Source: a virus (lineage: Duplodnaviria; Heunggongvirae; Uroviricota; Caudoviricetes). From it: a DNA stretch of 18,083 nt. Position 1 is the stretch's first letter. Every line of letters starts with the position of its first letter. The stretch lies in the IMG/VR virus record IMGVR_UViG_2651869755_000020. One strand, given 5' to 3'. This document shows positions 6,638-17,710 of this stretch, one piece after another. Below the pieces are notes generated by a model. The model was given only the letters and a program-made list of their open reading frames with translations, searched no databases and was not told the origin of the DNA. Made by a program: the position numbers and the translations under genes.

Positions 6638-9600
6638 ATGTCGGGACAGTTTTCAGTCGGCGTTGTTATCGGCGGGATGATTGGCAGCACATTCCGTTCT
6701 GCAATGAGCGGTACCCGCCGTGCGCTTGATTCCCTGAGCGATACCTCACGCCGCCTGCAGGAACGTCAGAACGCTTTAACCCGTGCAACAGAACGTTATG
6801 GTCAACTGGGTTCTTCCCGGATGCAGCATCTCAACAGCGAGCTGCTGCGGGTAAGCCGCACCATGGAGCAAATTGAGCGCCAGCAGCGCCGTCTGTCAGC
6901 GGCATCCGCTACCAGTGATGCGCTGAAAGCTAACCGCATGGCGCTGTATGGTCAGGGGATTGAAGCGTATGGCATGGCACAGACTGTTTATCATACGGTT
7001 TCCCCTGCCGTTCAGCAGTCCATGTCTTTTCAGGACAAAATGATTGATATGTCGATCACCGCAAAATATGACAATAAAACGCGGGATGCACTTGCCGGAC
7101 AGATAAAAGGCTGGGCGCTTAAATACAATCAGTATCAGGATGAGCTGCAGGAGGCGGTGGGTTCACTCATCAGCGACAATATTGATAATGTGTCAGATAT
7201 CGGTTTTCTGATGCCGGATATTGCCCGCGCGGCAACGGCAACACGCACGTCTGCTCAGGACTGGGCAAAAGTGGCCGCAGTCTGGCAAAACTCCCTGAAA
7301 GGTGCGGCCAGAGATTTTGGTGCCGTTCAGAATATTATGGCTTATGCCGGTGACCAGGGGTCATTTGAAATCCCGGATCAGGTCAAGTGGATGCAGTCCC
7401 TGGCCCCAATGATGGCGGGTCTTGCCAGTGGAAAAGAGGCTGTTGCTGAAATCGGGGCCAGTCTCCAGATAGCAAAAATCGGTGCAGGTTCCACCGACGA
7501 AGCAGCCAATAATTTTAAAAACTTTCTTACCAAAATTTTTGCCCGCGATACTCAGAAACAGTTTGCTGATCTGGGTATTGATTTGCAGGGATCTATTGCG
7601 AGTTATAAAGCTGCGGGGATCTCTCCGATTGAAGGGATGTTGAGTGTTATAGAACGTTACCTCAATGCCAAAAGCCCCGAAGCGCTGGCCGGCTTCAAAT
7701 CAGCCATGAAAATAAAGAATGATACGGCAAGAGATGAGGCACTTCAGGCTCTGGCGAAAAACTTTGGTCTGGGCGATATGTTCGCGGATATGCAGGTCAT
7801 GGCATTTATCCGCCCGATGCTGGCCAACATGGACAGATATCGAGAGATCCGTGCCGGTGCTCTCAGGGCTGCGGATAACGATTTGCTTGCCAGTGCTTAT
7901 GATCAGCGGCTGAAATCTCCCCTTGAAGCCACTAAAACACTTATGGTCAGCAGTCGCGATCTGGCAATTACGCTGGGCGATCAATTAGCTCCATCTTTTA
8001 TTTCTCTGACTCAGGAACTGCTCCCACTCATTCAGGGGACAAAACACTGGGTAGCGACTCACCCGCAATTTGTCAGTGGGGCTTTTAAGCTCATCAGTGC
8101 GCTCCTTGCGATTAAGATAGCGACTATTGGTCTCAAACTGGGGCTGAATCTCCTTATTTCCCCCTTTGTGAACGTCTGGAAAACTACTGTTTTACTCCGG
8201 ACCAACTGGCATCGACTGACTACCGCACTCGGAGAAGGTGGCAAATTACGCTGGCTTGTCACTGGATTCAGCCGACTGACCAGCGGAGGACTGAAACTCA
8301 GCAAAGTTCTGGCGGGCAGCCTCGTTCGCGGTTTTATGAGCGCTGCACGTGCCGTTCTCTGGATTGGGCGAGCGCTGATGATGAATCCCATCGGTCTCGT
8401 TATCACCGCTGTCGCGACAGCAGCTTACCTTATCTACCGCAACTGGGGGGCTGTCAGTGGTTGGTTTAAACAGCGCTGGGCTGACATTCAGGAAGCCTTT
8501 AACGGCGGCATTGTGGGAATTGGTAAGTTGCTGATTAACTGGTCGCCGGCAGGCCTGCTCTATAAAGCCTTTGCGGCTGCGCTGAAATATTTCGGCGTTG
8601 CTCTGCCGGCAAAGTTCACCGACTTCGGTGGCCATCTTATCGACGGTCTGATTAACGGTATCAAAAGCAAATGGGGGTCGCTCAAATCCAGTGTAACCGG
8701 AATGGGTGACAGCATCAGTAGCTGGTTTAAACAGCGCTGGGCTGACATTCAGGAAGCCTTTAACGGCGGCATTGTGGGAATTGGTAAGTTGCTGATTAAC
8801 TGGTCGCCGGCAGGCCTGCTCTATAAAGCCTTTGCGGCTGCGCTGAAATATTTCGGCGTTGCTCTGCCGGCAAAGTTCACCGACTTCGGTGGCCATCTTA
8901 TCGACGGTCTGATTAACGGTATCAAAAACAAATGGGGGTCGCTCAAATCCAGTGTAACCGGAATGGGTGACAGCATCAGTAGCTGGTTTAAACAGTGCTG
9001 GGCTGACATTCAGGAAGCCTTTAACGGCGGTATCGCGGGAACTGGTAAGCTGCTGATTAACTGGTCGCCGGCAGGTCTGCTCTATAAAGCCTTTGCAGCT
9101 GCGCTGAAATATCTTGGTGTTGATCTGCCGGCAAAGTTCACCGACTTCGGTGGCCATCTTGTCGACGGTCTGATTAACGGTATCAAAAACAAATGGGAGT
9201 CGCTCAAATCCAGTGTAACCGGAATGGGTGACAGCATCAGTGGCTGGTTCAGCGAAAAGCTGGGCATTCATTCGCCGAGCCGCGTGTTTATGGGCTTTGG
9301 TGACAATATCGCGCAGGGGGCCGCCATTGGCCTGCAGCGGACCACTCCGCTTGCAGCTCTGGCCGGGCAGCGAATGGCCAGTGAACTGCTCCCCAGAATG
9401 CCCGTGAGCATTCAGGGGCCAGAAATACGGGATAACACTTCAGGTGTTCGCTTCAGTATGCCGTTGCCCGATATCAATGGGTTTATGTCGTCTGCTAAAA
9501 ATGCGATCGGAGCCGTAATCAATAGTTTGTCTTCCATGCCCGTTATTCCGCTCTCCACCCGGGCATCGATTTTACCAGGGCAACGTCTGGCAAATGAGAT

Positions 9601-10946: not shown

Positions 10947-12106
10947 ACAGCACTGCGCAAGTCACATCAGCGTTAACCGGCGTCAGCGATGTGCTGACAC
11001 CGGTGTTCACTCTGTGGTATCTGCAGAAAAACATCACCTCTGATATCGCGCCTTATGTCACCCGTGTGACCTGGAGCGATAACATCAAAAATGAGTCCGA
11101 TACCATTGAGGTGGAGCTGGACGACACCGATGGCCGCTGGCTGGATAAGTGGTATCCGGGCAAGGGTGACACGCTGACGCTGAAAATGGGCTATCAGGAC
11201 GAGAAGCTGCTGTCCTGCGGTACGTTCTCTATAGACGAGATCGAAGTGAGTTCGCCCGCTTCCGTTGTTTCTATCCGTGGGGTGGCCACCTCGGTTAACA
11301 GTGCCCTGCGGACTAAAACCAGTCGTGGTTTTGAGAACACCACGCTGGCAGCTGTTGCGGGGCGGATTGCCAGAAAGCACCGGCTGAAACTGGTGGGCAG
11401 CATTGAGTCCATCAGAATCGACCGGGTGACCCAGTATGCTGAAACCGACGTGGGTTTTCTGCGCCGGCTGGCCAGCGAGTATGGTTATGCAGTGAAAGTG
11501 GTCAGTGACCAGCTGATTTTTTCTCATCTGGCCACACTGCGCAGTCAGGAGCCGGTCAGGCAGTTAAAACCGCAGGATGTGGCCCGCTTTTCCCTGCGTG
11601 ACACCATCAACCGGGTCTATAAATCTGCAAAGGTAAAACACCAGAAAAGCAGCAGTAAAAAACTGATCGTCTACGAAGCTGATGGTGGTACCCGTGAAAG
11701 CGACAAAAAGCTCAAAGGTGGTAAGGTTACCAGCGCTGACTCACTTAAAGTTAACAGCCGCGTCAGCGACCCGGACAGTGCCCGGATTAAAGCGGATTCA
11801 GCACTGGCCAGACATAACGAATACCAGCAGAACGGCTCCCTGACGCTGACGGGAACACCTCAACTGACAGCAGGCAACAAAATTGAACTGGTGGGTTTTG
11901 GGCAGTTATCCGGGCCATGGCTCATAACCACTGCCCGCCATGCGTTTGACCGTAACAGCGGCTACACCACAGAGCTGGAAGTGGCACGGGGGCCGATCAC
12001 ACAGGGCAAGGCGAAGAAAGGTAAAAAAATCGGCAAAACCCGGATGCTGACCATCTATAAACCGGACGGCAGCACGTCCACAGTAATAAGAGAGAAGAAA
12101 AAATGA
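10934..12106 (+). CDS. tail/baseplate hub protein, P2 gpD-like (Mu gpP position)
   Basis: 390-aa ORF following the X-like gene and preceding the spike gene. Lys-rich C-terminus. Order X-D-V-W-J-I matches Mu/P2-type baseplate modules. Confidence 0.65.
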   Translation: MAEINSTAQVTSALTGVSDVLTPVFTLWYLQKNITSDIAPYVTRVTWSDNIKNESDTIEVELDDTDGRWLDKWYPGKGDTLTLKMGYQDEKLLSCGTFSIDEIEVSSPASVVSIRGVATSVNSALRTKTSRGFENTTLAAVAGRIARKHRLKLVGSIESIRIDRVTQYAETDVGFLRRLASEYGYAVKVVSDQLIFSHLATLRSQEPVRQLKPQDVARFSLRDTINRVYKSAKVKHQKSSSKKLIVYEADGGTRESDKKLKGGKVTSADSLKVNSRVSDPDSARIKADSALARHNEYQQNGSLTLTGTPQLTAGNKIELVGFGQLSGPWLITTARHAFDRNSGYTTELEVARGPITQGKAKKGKKIGKTRMLTIYKPDGSTSTVIREKKK

Positions 12107-12699
12107 CTGGTGTCACTCGTCAGGTCGGTACGGTCAGTGCCGTTGATGCCGACAGGGTTCAGGCCCGCGTTCGTCTGCCTGAATGCGATAACCTGCGCAC
12201 AAACTGGCTTAACGTGCTGCAGCGCAATACCCAGGATAACAAAGATTACTGGCTCCCTGACGTGGGGGAGCAGGTTGAGGTGCTGCTCGATGCCAACGGC
12301 GAGGATGGTGTTATTCTGGGCGCGGTGTATTCAGACGTCGATAAACCACCGTTCAGTGACAAAAATATCCGGGGAACCCGGTTTGCTGATGGTGCAGAGT
12401 ACAGCTACAACCGGAAGACGCACACTCTGATCATCCGGGGCGGCATTGAGCATATTGTCATTGAGTGTGGTGCTGATGTGGTATTGAAAACACAGAAAGC
12501 CACGATTGACGCACCGGAAACCGAACTTACCGGAGATCTGCGTGTCAGGGGTAAGCTGATTTACGAAGGAGGCATGGCGGGTTCTGGTGGTGAAGGTGTT
12601 ACCGCGACCATCCATGGCAATATCGAGATTAAAGGGAATGCCCATGCCACGGGCAGTATGTTGTCTGATGGCGAAAACTCCAGCCACCACTCCCACTGA
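12103..12699 (+). CDS. baseplate spike / assembly protein V-like (Mu gp45 position)
   Basis: 198-aa ORF with start overlapping the upstream stop. Size and sequence character (OB-fold-like N-terminus, Gly-rich C-terminal tip ending SSHHSH) fit gpV-type central spike proteins. Confidence 0.7.
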   Translation: MTGVTRQVGTVSAVDADRVQARVRLPECDNLRTNWLNVLQRNTQDNKDYWLPDVGEQVEVLLDANGEDGVILGAVYSDVDKPPFSDKNIRGTRFADGAEYSYNRKTHTLIIRGGIEHIVIECGADVVLKTQKATIDAPETELTGDLRVRGKLIYEGGMAGSGGEGVTATIHGNIEIKGNAHATGSMLSDGENSSHHSH

Positions 12700-12753: not shown

Positions 12754-13101
12754 ATGAAAACAACCTCAGTATTCTGGCAACCGACCCTGCAGGCTCCCGG
12801 CGAAATTGTCCGGGGGCTGGATGATATCCGGCAGGCGATTCAAATTATCCTGCGGACTCCCCGCGGCAGCGACCCGCATCGCCCGGAGTTCGGCAGCAAT
12901 CTGCATCTTTATATCGACTGGCCTGTAGACCGGGCCATTCCGCATGTGGTGCGCGAATCCGTCGATGCCATCCGACGCTGGGAGCCCCGCTGCCAGCTTA
13001 TGTCAGTTAAACCCGCCGTCGACGGCGAACATCTTACGCTCCGGGTGAGCTGGAAAGGCTCAGACGGACAGACCCGGACTCAGGAGTTGCTATGGCGCTG
13101 A
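12754..13101 (+). CDS. baseplate wedge protein, gpW / T4 gp25-like
   Basis: 115-aa ORF. Size and position between the spike and the J-like gene are typical of gp25/W lysozyme-fold baseplate proteins. Downstream gene overlaps its 3' end. Confidence 0.7.
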   Translation: MKTTSVFWQPTLQAPGEIVRGLDDIRQAIQIILRTPRGSDPHRPEFGSNLHLYIDWPVDRAIPHVVRESVDAIRRWEPRCQLMSVKPAVDGEHLTLRVSWKGSDGQTRTQELLWR

Positions 13102-14195
13102 CAGAACCCGATTTTATTGAACGCGATGCCGACAAAATCACGGCAGAAATGATTGCGAAGTATGAAGCGGATACCGGCAAAACGCTGTACCCGGCACAGG
13201 CAGAACGTCTGCTGATTGATCTGTGGGCCTATCGCGAAATGCTGGTCAGGGTTGCGGTACAGGAGGCAGCAAAGCAGAATCTGGTCGCCTTTTCACGAGA
13301 GCCGATGATTGATTACCTCGGAGAACTGGTTGGTGTATACCGCCTTGCCGCGCAGCCTGCCACCACCACACTTCAGTTCTCTGTGGATGAGGCACTGACC
13401 ATTGATGTGCTGATCCCGGCAGGCACCCGCGTCAGCGCTTCCGACAGCGTTATTTTTGCCACCGATACAGATGTGGTACTGAAGGCCGGATTGCTGCTGG
13501 TCAATGTCACGTCCACCTGTACCGAACCCGGTACCGCTGGTAACGGCTGGCAACCTGCGCAGGTCAGTCAGTTACTCGATGAGATTGATAACGTCGACCT
13601 GCTGGTGAGCAATCTGACGGCCAGTTCCGGCGGTTCAGAACAGGAAGACGATGACAGGCTCCGGGAGCGTATCAGGCTGGCCCCGGAGTCATTCACCAAT
13701 GCCGGAAGCCGTGGCGCATACCGCTTTCATGCCATGCAGGCCCATCCCAACATTGTCGATGTTGCTGTGCTTTCCCCGGTTCCCGGGACCGTAGATCTGT
13801 ATCCGCTGCTCAGTACCGGTCTGCCGGACGGCGGTGTTCTCACGCTGGTAGAGAGTTTCTGCTCTGATGAGAAAGTCAGGCCACTCACTGATACAGTGCG
13901 GGCTAAAACACCAGTGAAGGTGGATTACACCATTGAAGCCAGGATTACGATCTATCGTGATCAGGATGCCAGGTCTGTAAAAGATGCCGCTAACAGCGCC
14001 ATACAGAACTGGGTGGCATCACGTGCCGCCACGCTGGGGCGTGATATTGTCCCCAGCCAGATTATCAGTGCATTGTCCGTTTCCGGGGTGTACCAGGTTG
14101 AACTGGTGACACCGGCACTGAGGGTGGTGGCAGAAAACGAATGGGCAAACTGTACGGCGATCACACTTAACATGAGTGGAGTGTCTGATGACTGA
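13092..14195 (+). CDS. baseplate protein J-like (Mu gp47 position)
   Basis: 367-aa ORF with AGGAG RBS, overlapping the upstream and downstream genes. Size and position are typical of Baseplate_J family proteins. Confidence 0.75.
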   Translation: MALTEPDFIERDADKITAEMIAKYEADTGKTLYPAQAERLLIDLWAYREMLVRVAVQEAAKQNLVAFSREPMIDYLGELVGVYRLAAQPATTTLQFSVDEALTIDVLIPAGTRVSASDSVIFATDTDVVLKAGLLLVNVTSTCTEPGTAGNGWQPAQVSQLLDEIDNVDLLVSNLTASSGGSEQEDDDRLRERIRLAPESFTNAGSRGAYRFHAMQAHPNIVDVAVLSPVPGTVDLYPLLSTGLPDGGVLTLVESFCSDEKVRPLTDTVRAKTPVKVDYTIEARITIYRDQDARSVKDAANSAIQNWVASRAATLGRDIVPSQIISALSVSGVYQVELVTPALRVVAENEWANCTAITLNMSGVSDD

Positions 14196-14766
14196 GCCAT
14201 TACAACTCCCGCCACCGCTTGAGGGTGATATCAGTCTCAGGACGCTGGGAAGACTGGCAGGGCGGCTGGATAACATCGACCTGAGCGTACTGATGGTCTT
14301 TCTCGTCGATATCGTCGACAGTTCTGCGCTGCCATGGCTGGGCGAGCAGTTCTCACTGTCTGGCGATGGCTGGGAGCTGGCGGAATCGGACGATGTTCGC
14401 CGCATGCTTATAAAAGCAGCCATCGAACTACACCGGTATAAAGGGACGCCGTGGTCAATCCGGGAAGTTATCCGCCGTTTTGGCTTTGGTGAAGTGGATC
14501 TGATTGAAGGCACAGGTCGTCTCAGTTACGACGGCAATCGCAGCTATAACGGACTGTTTGTTCATGGAGATGCAGCCGCCTGGGCGGTTTATCGCGTTAT
14601 TCTGAAACAGCCCATTACTAACGATCAGGCCGCGATGCTGCGTCAGACGCTCGCTGCATTTGCACCGGCCCGCTGCCATCTGGCCAGCCTGGAGTATCAG
14701 TCTGTGGCCATTCGCTATAACAATACCGCCATCCATGATGGCAGTTATAACCACGGGAGCAGTTGA
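14188..14766 (+). CDS. baseplate/tail protein I-like (Mu gp48 position)
   Basis: ATG at 14188 (MTEPLQLPPPLEGD...) is in frame with the track ORF that begins at GTG 14176. It overlaps the upstream stop by 8 nt. 192 aa, immediately before the tail fiber gene as in P2 (I-H) and Mu (R-S). Confidence 0.65.
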   Translation: MTEPLQLPPPLEGDISLRTLGRLAGRLDNIDLSVLMVFLVDIVDSSALPWLGEQFSLSGDGWELAESDDVRRMLIKAAIELHRYKGTPWSIREVIRRFGFGEVDLIEGTGRLSYDGNRSYNGLFVHGDAAAWAVYRVILKQPITNDQAAMLRQTLAAFAPARCHLASLEYQSVAIRYNNTAIHDGSYNHGSS

Positions 14767-14768
14767 TT

Positions 14769-16391
14769 ATGGGAAACCTGAATGAAACAGAAAAGTGGGA
14801 AGAAAAAATCTATCAACTGGAGACATCAGATCCGGTTCTGGGTGGTGCTGACGGGATATCAAATCGAGCCCCCCGGCAACTGGCAAACAGGACGAAATGG
14901 CTGAAGAAAAAAACGGAGGAAGCCGCACAGTCACTGGCTGAACACGTACGTTCCCGTAACCACCCGGACGCGACACTGACAGCTAAGGGGTTCACCCAAC
15001 TGAGCAGTGCCACCAACAGCACCTCTGAAACGCTGGCCGCCACACCAAAAGCCGTCAAGGCTGCATACGACCTTGCAGCCGGCAAGGCACCCGTCAGTCA
15101 CACTCACCCGTGGAGTCAGATAACGGGAGTGCCTGCTGCCTCGCTGACGGCAAAAGGCACCGTACAGCTGAGCAGTGCCACGGACAGTCAATCAGAAACT
15201 GAGGCTGCCACGCCGAAGGCTGTGAAAATCGCGTATGATCTGGCCCGGGGAAAATACACAGCCCAGGATGCAACAACGACCCGTAAAGGGATCGTACAAC
15301 TGAGCAGTGCCACCAACAGCACCTCTGAAACGCTGGCCGCCACACCAAAGGCCGTCAAGGCTGCATATGACCTGGCTGCCGGCAAGGCCCCCGTCAGCCA
15401 CACTCACCCGTGGAGTCAGATAACGGGAGTGCCTGCTGCCTCGCTGACGGCAAAAGGCACCGTACAACTGAGCAGCGCCACGGACAGTCAATCAGAAACT
15501 GAGGCTGCCACGCCGAAGGCGGTCAAGGCTGCATACGACCTTGCAGCCGGCAAGGCGCCCGTCAGCCACACTCACCCGTGGAGTCAGATAACGGGAGTGC
15601 CTGCTGCCTCGCTGACGGCAAAAGGCACCATACAATTGAGCAGTGCCATCAACAGCACGTCTGAAATACTGGCCGCCACACCGAAAGCGGTCAAGGCTGC
15701 ATACGATCTGGCAAACGGAAAACAACCGGCAGATGCCACGCTCACTGCTCTGGCAGGACTTGCCACTGCAGCAGATCGGTTGCCTTATTTTACCGGAGCA
15801 GACCGCGCAGCGCTGGCAACCCTTACAGCTATTGGTCGCGCTATTATCGCTAAGGGCAGTATAAAAGATGTCCTCAATTACCTTGGTTTGGGGGAAGGCT
15901 CTGCACTGCCTGTTGGTGTGCCTGTTCCATGGCCCACCGCCACACCGCCAGCAGGCTGGTTAAAGTGCGACGGGCGCGCCTTTACAAAAGAACAATATCC
16001 TGTTCTGGCCAGAGTCTACCCGACCCTCCGTCTTCCCGATTTGCGCGGTGAGTTTATCCGTGGATGGGACGACGGGCGCAAAGTTGATACGGGGCGTTCA
16101 TTGCTAAGTGGTCAGGCTGCAACATTTATTCGTACAGCTTTGCAGGATTATTACGGTTACGATCTGAATACTAATGTCAAAGTAGGTATCGCTTTTGCTA
16201 CTGCTGATTCTGTTATAACCGTTGGAAACCCAGCTAATCCTAAAGCAGGAAAAAATAGCGATTATGTTCCTGCATCAGCAGATAACTCTATAACGGGTAT
16301 TCAAAGGACAGCGGAGGATAATTTTACCGGGGCATGGATATCAATGCGCCCCCGCAATGTTGCGTTTAATTACATCGTAAGGGCCGCATAA
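14769..16391 (+). CDS. tail fiber protein with internal phage-fiber repeats and a C-terminal collar-type receptor-binding domain
   Basis: 540-aa ORF from ATG 14769 (GGGAG RBS about 10 nt upstream; the track starts at TTG 14763). Five copies of the motif LTAKG-x-QLSSAT-x-S-x-SET-x-AATPKAVK-x-AYDLA, typical of lambda Stf / Mu S / P2 H fibers. C-terminal region (PWPTATPPAGWLKCDGRAF...LPDLRGEFIRGWDDGR) resembles the phage tail collar domain. Confidence 0.85.
   Translation: MGNLNETEKWEEKIYQLETSDPVLGGADGISNRAPRQLANRTKWLKKKTEEAAQSLAEHVRSRNHPDATLTAKGFTQLSSATNSTSETLAATPKAVKAAYDLAAGKAPVSHTHPWSQITGVPAASLTAKGTVQLSSATDSQSETEAATPKAVKIAYDLARGKYTAQDATTTRKGIVQLSSATNSTSETLAATPKAVKAAYDLAAGKAPVSHTHPWSQITGVPAASLTAKGTVQLSSATDSQSETEAATPKAVKAAYDLAAGKAPVSHTHPWSQITGVPAASLTAKGTIQLSSAINSTSEILAATPKAVKAAYDLANGKQPADATLTALAGLATAADRLPYFTGADRAALATLTAIGRAIIAKGSIKDVLNYLGLGEGSALPVGVPVPWPTATPPAGWLKCDGRAFTKEQYPVLARVYPTLRLPDLRGEFIRGWDDGRKVDTGRSLLSGQAATFIRTALQDYYGYDLNTNVKVGIAFATADSVITVGNPANPKAGKNSDYVPASADNSITGIQRTAEDNFTGAWISMRPRNVAFNYIVRAA
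14976..15720 (+). repeat. in-frame direct repeats inside the tail fiber gene (five fiber-repeat units; two about 220-bp stretches nearly identical)
   Basis: Units start near 14976, 15144, 15281, 15445 and 15613. Stretches beginning CAACTGAGCAGTGCCACCAACAGCACCTCTGAAACG at 14997 and 15298 remain near-identical for about 220 bp. Confidence 0.85.
15881..15922 (+). repeat. left inverted repeat of the invertible cassette; overlaps a hix/gix-like crossover site (about 15871-15896, core TT at 15883-15884)
   Basis: CCTTGGTTTGGGGGAAGGCTCTGCACTGCCTGTTGGTGTGCC. Its reverse complement matches 16416-16457 at 40 of 42 positions. The half-sites around the TT core resemble the 12-2-12 recombination sites of Hin/Gin/Cin/Pin invertases. 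Confidence 0.7.
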
Positions 16392-16415
16392 AAACGTTGG
16401 TTTAGGAGAAGGCTC

Positions 16416-16457
16416 GGCACACCAACAGGCAATGCAGAGCCTTCCCCCAAACCAACG
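16416..16457 (-). repeat. right inverted repeat of the invertible cassette (core AA at 16454-16455), about 65 bp upstream of the invertase start
   Basis: GGCACACCAACAGGCAATGCAGAGCCTTCCCCCAAACCAACG is the reverse complement of the left repeat with 2 mismatches. Placement next to the invertase gene mirrors gixR/gin and hixR/hin. Confidence 0.7.
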
Positions 16458-16521
16458 TTTATCTCTCAAATCCTCCCCACATTATCTCAGTACTTTAACC
16501 ACTCAAAAGGGAGTATTTTTA

Positions 16522-17094
16522 ATGCTGATTGGCTACATACGTGTGTCAACAAATGACCAAAACACAGATTTGCAACGCAATGCATTAATGTGCGCAGGAT
16601 GTGAACAGATTTTTGAGGACAAAATGAGCGGAACCAAGTCGGAACGACCAGGCCTGAAACGCGCTTTAAAGTGCCTTAAAAGAGGGGATACATTGGTGGT
16701 CTGGAAGCTGGATCGGTTGGGTAGAAGAATGAAACACCTCATTGCTCTCACAGAAGAGCTACGCGCAAAAGGTGTCAATTTTCGCAGTCTGACGGATTCA
16801 ATCGATACCAGCACTCCGATGGGAAGGTTCTTTTTTCATATGATGGGTGCACTGGCAGAAATGGAGCGTGAACTGATAGTTGAGCGCACGCTGGCAGGAC
16901 TGGCTGCTGCGCGAGCACAAGGAAGAGTTGGAGGACGTCGCCCGAAACTGACGAAGGAGCAGCATGAGCAGATCGCAAGATTGCTCCAGAAAGGGTATGA
17001 CAGAAAGCGGCTGGCAATTATCTATGATATTGGACTGTCAACGATCTACCGCTACCACCCTGTTGGGACTGTCATAACGCAACCTGAAATGTAA
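16522..17094 (+). CDS. site-specific DNA invertase, serine recombinase of the Gin/Pin/Cin/Hin family
   Basis: 190-aa ORF from ATG 16522 (AAAGGGAG RBS). Begins MLIGYIRVSTNDQNTDLQRNAL..., with GDTLVVWKLDRLGR and the C-terminal HTH, near-identical in pattern to Gin/Pin as recalled. The track start at 16432 adds 30 non-conserved residues and overlaps the inverted repeat, so it is rejected. Confidence 0.9.
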   Translation: MLIGYIRVSTNDQNTDLQRNALMCAGCEQIFEDKMSGTKSERPGLKRALKCLKRGDTLVVWKLDRLGRRMKHLIALTEELRAKGVNFRSLTDSIDTSTPMGRFFFHMMGALAEMERELIVERTLAGLAAARAQGRVGGRRPKLTKEQHEQIARLLQKGYDRKRLAIIYDIGLSTIYRYHPVGTVITQPEM

Positions 17095-17172
17095 TTCTTT
17101 TTCAAATAATGAAACGCCGCGTGGATGCCATTTATCGCACAAGATAGAGTGCATTTATCGCGCGGCGCATCA
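17095..17172 (+). mobile_element. putative right terminus (attR end) of the Mu-like prophage with repeated transposase-binding-like motifs
   Basis: Two copies of GCATTTATCGC (17128-17141 and 17149-17163). Terminal sequence ...TTTATCGCGCGGCGCATCA ends in CA and matches my recollection of the Mu right end (...TTTTTCGTGCGCCGCTTCA) at about 15 of 19 positions. Host prpR coding sequence begins immediately after. Confidence 0.5.
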
Positions 17173-17710
17173 CGTCGGCGGGCATCAGCCTGTTCCGGTA
17201 GATGTACGGGTCATTAGCGCCACTCACTGCAATCTGGAAGAAGATATGCAGCAAGGACGTTTTCGCCGTGATCTGTTTTATCGGCTGAGTATTTTGCGTC
17301 TGCAATTGCCACCACTGCGCGAGCGGGTGGCGGATATTCTTCCGCTGGCGGAAAGCTTTTTGAAAGTGTCTCTGGCGGCGCTCTCCGCCCCATTTTCTGC
17401 TGCATTACGCCAGGGGTTACAGGCAAGTGAAACTGTGCTGCTGCACTACGACTGGCCAAGCAATATTCGTGAACTGCGCAATATGATGGAACGACTGGCG
17501 CTGTTTTTAAGTGTGGAACCGACGCCGGATTTAACGCCGCAGTTTATGCAACTGCTACTGCCGGAACTGGCGCGCGAGTCGGCGAAAACTCCCGCTCCAC
17601 GCTTACTGACACCACAACAGGCACTGGAGAAATTTAATGGCGATAAAACAGCAGCGGCGAATTATTTAGGCATCAGCCGGACGACGTTCTGGCGGCGGCT
17701 GAAAAGCTGA
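17173..17710 (+). pseudogene. prpR: 3' fragment (about 180 codons) of the sigma-54-dependent propionate regulator gene, cut by the prophage insertion
   Basis: The frame translates from about 17173 as ...VGGHQPVPVDVRVISATHCNLEEDMQQGRFRRDLFYRL..., the conserved end of a sigma-54 activator AAA+ domain, then a C-terminal Fis-type HTH (NYLGISRTTFWRRLKS). The same frame upstream of about 17170 is not activator-like. Convergent yahO follows after 97 bp, as in the E. coli yahO-prpR arrangement I recall. Confidence 0.7.

Follow-up and report, generated by a model that had tools for sequence, protein, structure and literature searches.

When a DNA invertase is left with a single tail-fibre tip to invert, is the result an ON/OFF switch or the remnant of a larger device? 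The question is raised by the window analysed here, an 18,083-nt stretch of DNA (IMG/VR record IMGVR_UViG_2651869755_000020) in which the gene of a Gin-family serine invertase adjoins a short invertible segment at the 3' end of a prophage tail-fibre gene. An earlier note on this DNA, made from its letters alone, had predicted that inversion alternates a complete with a truncated fibre, and had left two alternatives: a reduced derivative of a Mu G-type segment or an evolved adsorption phase switch. We found the segment in both orientations. The parent of the locus occurs in hundreds of E. coli and differs from it by one 1,555-bp deletion, which upholds the first alternative; the second found no support. 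Very probably, the locus represents a Gin-type invertible tail-fibre segment that has degenerated, carried by a Mu-like prophage inserted in prpR. On this reading it is a deletion derivative of a three-site, three-C-terminus system that is still flipping, and its ON/OFF behaviour is a by-product of decay.

We searched 5,426 complete E. coli genomes as well as metagenome contigs, IMG/VR, and ENA and NCBI assemblies, and found each orientation. One of the complete genomes, NZ_CP091756 (L002), aligns colinearly with the window. In another, NZ_CM128543 (L001), the prophage is likewise inserted in prpR but the middle third has no match on the same strand. When the window was inverted in silico between the central dinucleotides of the two outer crossover sites (15883-84 and 16454-55), it matched the prpR locus of NZ_CM128543 without a gap and at all but one of 1501 bases; NZ_CP091756 was matched equally well by the window as it stands. 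The predicted inversion between complete and truncated forms thus occurs in nature. In NZ_CM128543, a C/T difference between the arms of the flanking inverted repeat had moved with the segment while an outer C/G difference had stayed put; the exchange therefore took place between 15882 and 15908, on a stretch that includes the core.

An exact search of metagenome contigs for the internal junction yielded two more carriers, L088 (inverted) and L089 (not inverted), both flanked by yahO. L089 lacks 12 bp of the prpR remnant (equivalent to window 17569-17580) and so represents a distinct strain of the window lineage. In relatives with one more shaft repeat the truncated product is 499 residues long, and this fibre was found on nine contigs of public assemblies with the same neighbours; the window's own 540-residue product was found on two. 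Between genomes and contigs, then, L001, L088 and L091-L093 are inverted, and the window, L002, L089 and L090 are not. The five aligned carriers differ, shaft repeats aside, by at most one single-nucleotide polymorphism (SNP) and one 12-bp indel. That both orientations occur at a divergence of 0-1 SNP indicates that flipping is fast relative to mutation. Together, these comparisons indicate that the segment between the outer sites inverts in nature.

The segment is bounded by an inverted repeat and by recombination sites of the expected type (Table 1). The repeat, described in the earlier note as 42 bp with 40 matches, has arms of 43 nt that are 41/43 (95%) complementary and 493 nt apart; with up to three mismatches allowed, the arm sequence occurs exactly twice in the window, against 0.00 occurrences expected from 200 shuffles. 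The arms do overlap hix/gix-like 12-2-12 sites, as the note had supposed. Site L reads TCCTCAATTACC TT GGTTTGGGGGAA and the reverse complement of site R reads GAGAGATAAACG TT GGTTTGGGGGAA, such that the TT core and the inner half-site GGTTTGGGGGAA are common to both. Mu gixL, extracted from the Mu genome, reads TTATCCAAAACC TC GGTTTACAGGAA and aligns with L and R in the same fibre reading frame, N-x-L-G-L. The window thus possesses paired inverted 12-2-12 sites with matching central dinucleotides inside a fibre open reading frame (ORF), an arrangement characteristic of the Gin/Hin/Cin/Pin (Din) invertible tail-fibre segments.

The two-site picture of the note was incomplete, as it overlooked a third site, M, and the palindromic deletion scar. 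Site M follows directly on the fibre stop codon and runs straight into the right arm of the repeat. The near-palindrome formed in this way has, as RNA, a predicted folding energy of -39 kcal/mol (z -5.9). The window therefore has three crossover sites, L, M and R, multiple-inversion systems having at least three; of the exchangeable cassettes, of which such systems likewise have at least three, one is left. A scan of 15700-17250 for promoter and terminator consensus sequences found none above shuffled expectation.

In its complete ('ON') orientation, the fibre gene encodes a constant shaft with five Phage_fiber_2 repeats (PF03406, E = 1e-93) and a C-terminal Collar-type tip (PF07484, E = 5.5e-15, residues 385-432). 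The note had assigned the C-terminal 157 residues to the cassette. A single Collar-type distal domain is indeed present, but the codons unique to the cassette, here termed SvA, are the last 155, beyond ...GVP. Inverted in silico, the ORF encodes 401 residues without a Collar tip and ends in ...ALPVGVPSLLLNQRFYAALTM and a stop, exactly as the note had translated it beyond ...ALPVGVP. This 'OFF' product closes with 14 unrelated codons (SLLLNQRFYAALTM), which are read from the opposite strand of the scar, namely the remnant in the right arm, site M and the last SvA codons, and which have no coding frame of their own. Nor is there an alternative exon, in agreement with the note: on the inverted strand the ORF list gives only a 42-residue ORF (16341-16469, minus strand).

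Two sequence differences within the fibre gene were observed in passing. The shaft (14963-15712) is built of tandem units of 132, 168 and 300 bp, and L001 and L002, which belong to the window's lineage, each have exactly one 300-bp unit (100 residues) more than the window. This may be real variation in repeat number or a collapsed repeat, the window apparently stemming from a draft assembly (GCA_013085425.1). Position 16253 is A in the window but T in each of the four other aligned members of the lineage; as a result, a Collar-tip codon for Asn (AAT) becomes one for Lys (AAA), and a run of six A arises.

The earlier note had recognized a Gin/Pin-family invertase just beyond the right repeat, and this identification is borne out by comparison with characterized proteins. 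The 66 nt between the R core and the start codon lead into a gene whose product matches Resolvase (PF00239, E = 8e-51) and HTH_7 (PF02796, E = 1e-12), as well as Gin structures 4m6f (E = 2e-93) and 3uj3 (E about 1e-93) over residues 1-181, over which it has 76% amino acid identity to Mu Gin. It is identical to WP_000904922.1 of full-length prophages. The recombinational enhancer of gin and hin lies in the 5' coding region of the invertase gene. The first 110 nt of the window's invertase gene are 78% identical to Mu gin, and a putative Fis-dependent enhancer is placed there by homology. A loose Fis-motif scan gave co-located matches in the 5' regions of this gene and of Mu gin, with a motif too degenerate to decide the matter. 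Both Ser9 and Met114 are conserved; in Gin, Ser9 is catalytic and the M114V substitution lifts the Fis requirement (PMC3575834).

The origin of the one-cassette segment is evident from other E. coli. Several hundred genomes match the window only up to 16419-16420. Three of these were inspected (L003, L004 and L005). In L003 and L005, the parent locus comprises L, SvA, M, SvB, the assembly gene Tfa, SvC and R, in that order, followed by the identical invertase; L and M point rightwards, and SvC and R leftwards. SvB is a second Collar cassette, Tfa a 204-residue tail-fibre assembly gene and SvC a third cassette on the opposite strand. Inverting L003 in silico between M and R reproduced L004 over 2860 bases at 99.2% identity, which shows that the parent family permutes its cassettes in nature. 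Relative to this parent, the window is without L003 5820-7374, comprising SvB, Tfa and SvC. The junction is a 3-bp microhomology, GGC (16416-16418), common to both flanks, and on either side of it the sequence is nearly identical to the full version. With a single Collar cassette and no Tfa homologue left, the window does not retain the combination of alternative C-termini and an assembly gene that its parent has.

We considered whether the invertase itself made the deletion and rejected this, as neither endpoint is at a core: one is located 20 nt inside M and the other 35-38 nt inside R. The deletion accordingly arose by illegitimate recombination. In the parent, the 5' ends of SvB and SvC form a 231-bp inverted repeat of 90% identity, which plausibly brought the endpoints together.

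The deletion junction was present in 2 of the 5,426 complete genomes, and an exact search for it in IMG/VR returned no match. We also compared the window with 80 IMG/VR loci that encode close homologues of the invertase. Their segments carry 1-9 Collar cassettes, and no other one-cassette segment was found among them. In these loci, 1.5 kb or more separates the invertase gene from the nearest inverted partner of the R site, versus about 0.6 kb in the window. Nearly all loci with enough upstream sequence yielded a Tfa gene, L075 being the clear exception; the window lineage is without one. On the best reading of these data, the deletion is recent and rare.

Some of the related loci deserve mention in their own right. 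In L081, L070, L086 and L082, the invertase relatives adjoin arrays of 7-9 Collar-type cassettes of ~480-540 bp each, with a single assembly gene in L070, L081 and L086 and none detected in L082. These arrays are shufflon-like fibre systems much larger than the classic Mu, P1 and e14 segments. A further decayed segment may be represented by L075 (4979-6000), where three Collar cassettes, all on the opposite strand, precede the invertase gene and where the 6 kb upstream showed neither an assembly gene nor an inverted partner site.

These observations suggest the following course of events. A single illegitimate deletion, probably favoured by the inverted repeat of the SvB and SvC 5' ends, removed SvB, Tfa and SvC and left L, M, R and only SvA. 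By analogy with Gin and Hin, invertase dimers bound at L and R would then assemble on supercoiled DNA with Fis at an enhancer near the 5' end of the invertase gene (its first ~100 nt) to form an invertasome; the invertase would cut at the central TT cores, and a 180-degree rotation of subunits followed by religation would invert the 573 bp. One orientation encodes the whole fibre of 542 residues with its Collar tip, and the other the 401-residue form without it. The topological filter of these enzymes is expected to act against recombination between L and M, which are direct repeats. The pair M and R should likewise be inert, as the 55 bp between their cores are probably too few to loop; a flipped 55-bp spacer was not seen in any of the carriers aligned across the scar (the window, L001, L002, L088 and L089).

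Neither state need yield a working fibre. The deletion took the assembly chaperone gene with it, and without this gene even the 'ON' form may fail to fold. The prophage of this lineage also carries the IS66-family insertion sequence (IS) ISEc23 (tnpA), within which the window begins (1-~200). In L006, the same prophage in NZ_CP091756, ISEc23 sits between a virion-morphogenesis gene and the next late gene and possibly exerts a polar effect on the late genes. Given the missing chaperone and the IS insertion, any virions still made may be without functional fibres in either state.

An adsorption phase switch would require selection to keep the one-cassette segment so that some virions or lysogens lack the receptor-binding tip, with bet-hedging, avoidance of adsorption to debris or lysogens, or a truncated fibre of use to the host as proposed benefits. 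In its favour, neither the invertase nor any of the three sites is damaged, and the lineage commonly shows both orientations. There is also a precedent for host benefit: inversion of the e14 P segment by PinQ creates StfE2, which blocks T2 adsorption (PMC12529663). Nevertheless, we consider an evolved switch very unlikely, as a single deletion junction was found, in one insertion lineage and two complete genomes, and none of the 80 related loci provides a second case. Moreover, the scar is a fresh microhomology junction between flanks near-identical to the full version, the chaperone gene is gone, an IS has entered the prophage, and SLLLNQRFYAALTM is drawn from the opposite strand of the scar, in no frame of its own. 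There is similarly little likelihood that the segment is kept as a true phase-variable switch between tip-bearing and tip-less lysogens, one state of which benefits phage or host. If it were, the truncated fibre or the orphan Collar fragment might interfere with superinfecting phages, by analogy with StfE2.

Other explanations concern the inversion itself. RecA-dependent recombination between the 43-bp repeats, with the invertase uninvolved, would accord with a crossover that can be mapped only to the 25-27-bp interval of identity (15882-15908) and not to a dinucleotide. An interval of this size is at the lower limit of what RecA can exchange in E. coli; both orientations are nevertheless frequent across genomes that are almost identical. 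No inverted example had exchanged in the other identical block of the arms, of 13 bp, and in other genomes the cassettes of the parent are permuted by the same invertase and sites; we judge RecA a very improbable cause. Equally, most carriers are draft assemblies, and with at most one SNP and one 12-bp indel outside the shaft repeats it was impossible to count inversion events by SNP phylogeny, so the differences in orientation might be assembly artefacts or the legacy of a single historical inversion after which the segment froze. By contrast, a complete-genome record (NZ_CP091756) and a chromosome-level assembly (NZ_CM128543) differ in orientation, and each state occurs in independent ENA and NCBI assemblies. 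Furthermore, each junction is spanned directly, as the arms are shorter than a sequencing read, and the invertase is intact. Artefact or freezing is accordingly hard to credit.

Several points nonetheless weigh against interpreting the locus as a decaying but active inversion system. The evidence comes from comparison between genomes, and one past inversion could strictly explain the two states. We infer catalysis by the invertase, the alternative being RecA acting on about 25 bp of identity, and the Fis enhancer is putative and placed by homology. SvA may need the lost chaperone and the prophage may no longer make virions, which leaves the 'ON' phenotype putative. Finally, the intact invertase and sites could reflect selection rather than the youth of the deletion.

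The surroundings of the segment identify the element that carries it. The window is E. coli DNA, most of it filled by a prophage with P2-type baseplate and tail genes. The prophage splits prpR, of which only the 3' 154 codons are left, adjoining yahO. Its right end, ...GCGCATCA, is common to four genomes in which the host flanks differ: prpR in the window, the sfa region, ybjC and dsrB in the others. One phage end abutting unrelated host sequences fits Mu-type transposition. L006 is annotated with Mor, Gam, a DDE transposase, an ExeA (MuB-like) protein and a DUF935 protein. From this Mu-type gene annotation and the right-end comparison, the host element is assigned as a Mu-like transposable prophage. 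The early region of L006 (1-8800; Ner-like, transposase, MuB-like, Gam and Mor) runs leftwards, opposite to the late genes and unlike that of Mu, an arrangement that resembles BcepMu-type phages. Elsewhere in the window, the tape-measure gene contains tandem repeats of ~261 bp (8454-9249), with self-offset matches over 535 bp at 96.6% identity.

Table 1. Positions of the features of the invertible segment and of its surroundings in the window.
Feature	Position	Strand	Remarks
gpV-like gene	12103-12699		P2-type baseplate gene
gpW-like gene	12754-13101		P2-type baseplate gene
gpJ-like gene	13092-14195		P2-type baseplate gene
gpI-like gene	14176-14766		P2-type baseplate gene
Tail-fibre gene, complete ('ON') orientation	14763-16391	+	542 residues from TTG 14763 or 540 from ATG 14769
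Crossover site L, 26-bp 12-2-12	15871-15896, core TT 15883-84	+	Inside the fibre ORF at codons N-Y-L-G-L-G-E
Left arm of inverted repeat	15880-15922	+	Encodes LGLGEGSALPVGVP
Invertible segment	15883-16455	.	573 bp core to core; holds SvA, site M and the deletion scar
Crossover site M (CGCATAAAAACG TT GGTTTAGGAGAA)	16385-16410, core TT 16397-98	+	Direct orientation relative to L; entry to SvB in the parent
Near-palindrome, deletion scar	16392-16460 (69 nt)	.	Site M and right arm; 28-nt arms
Right arm of inverted repeat	16416-16458	-	What is left of the opening codons of the deleted cassette SvC
Crossover site R	16442-16467, core AA 16454-55 (TT on minus strand)	-	From site extraction and in-silico inversion
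Gin-family serine DNA invertase gene	16522-17094	+	190 residues
Putative Fis-dependent recombinational enhancer	16541-16606	.	Position from homology to the gin/hin 5' coding region only
Prophage right end (...GCGCGGCGCATCA)	17095-17172	+	Same end in four genomes with four different flanks
Host prpR 3' remnant	from 17173 (17173-17710), then yahO		From annotation

The locus is a rare decay variant of a known multi-inversion system. It reveals no new mechanism, and the cassette is not a designed minimal switch. What it offers is a natural experiment, in which a Gin-type invertase keeps inverting a mere 573 bp after two of three cassettes have been lost, and in which a host-range shuffling device is seen decaying into a toggle between complete and truncated fibres. 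It also calls for caution in annotation: one and the same prophage appears with a 640-residue fibre in one genome and with a 499-residue fibre plus a 'pseudogene' in another, purely on account of orientation.

Among known systems, the Mu G segment with Gin is one that the locus resembles in its setting. In both, the host phage is of the transposable Mu type, the invertase gene is directly downstream of the segment and near the right end of the phage, the 26-bp sites lie in the same fibre frame at the boundary between constant and variable parts, and the enhancer is presumed to occupy the 5' end of the invertase gene. The Mu segment, however, is 3 kb long with two sites and holds Sv-U and the inverted U'-Sv', which together switch host range between A and B, each form having its own chaperone. 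In the window the segment spans 573 bp and has three sites, a single tip, which is of another type (Collar), no chaperone, and a second product that is truncated.

The logic of the parent locus is that of the p15B Min multiple-inversion system. Its three sites, three fibre C-termini, coexisting permutations and one Hin/Gin-family invertase also correspond, by comparison of architecture, to the 'shufflon' in a P2-like prophage of enteropathogenic E. coli E2348/69, a locus that has three inverted repeats, occurs as four variants and offers three alternative C-termini (Goldberg et al. 2014, PMC4272514). The window differs in keeping the three sites but one cassette, as a result of which the permutations collapse to complete versus truncated.

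The e14 P segment of E. coli K-12, inverted by PinE/PinQ, is likewise an invertible fibre segment that still flips in a decayed prophage and thereby changes the ORF fused to the fibre stem. It measures 1.8 kb and presents a sizeable alternative ORF in both orientations (PMC4272514, PMC12529663). For one e14 product a host function has been reported, the block to T2 adsorption, whereas none is apparent in the window. In being binary, ON or OFF, the locus also resembles the Salmonella hin H segment and fimS, and it shares its enzyme family with hin. In those systems it is a promoter that is moved, by tyrosine recombinases in the case of fimS, whereas inversion of the window's segment breaks and restores a coding sequence.

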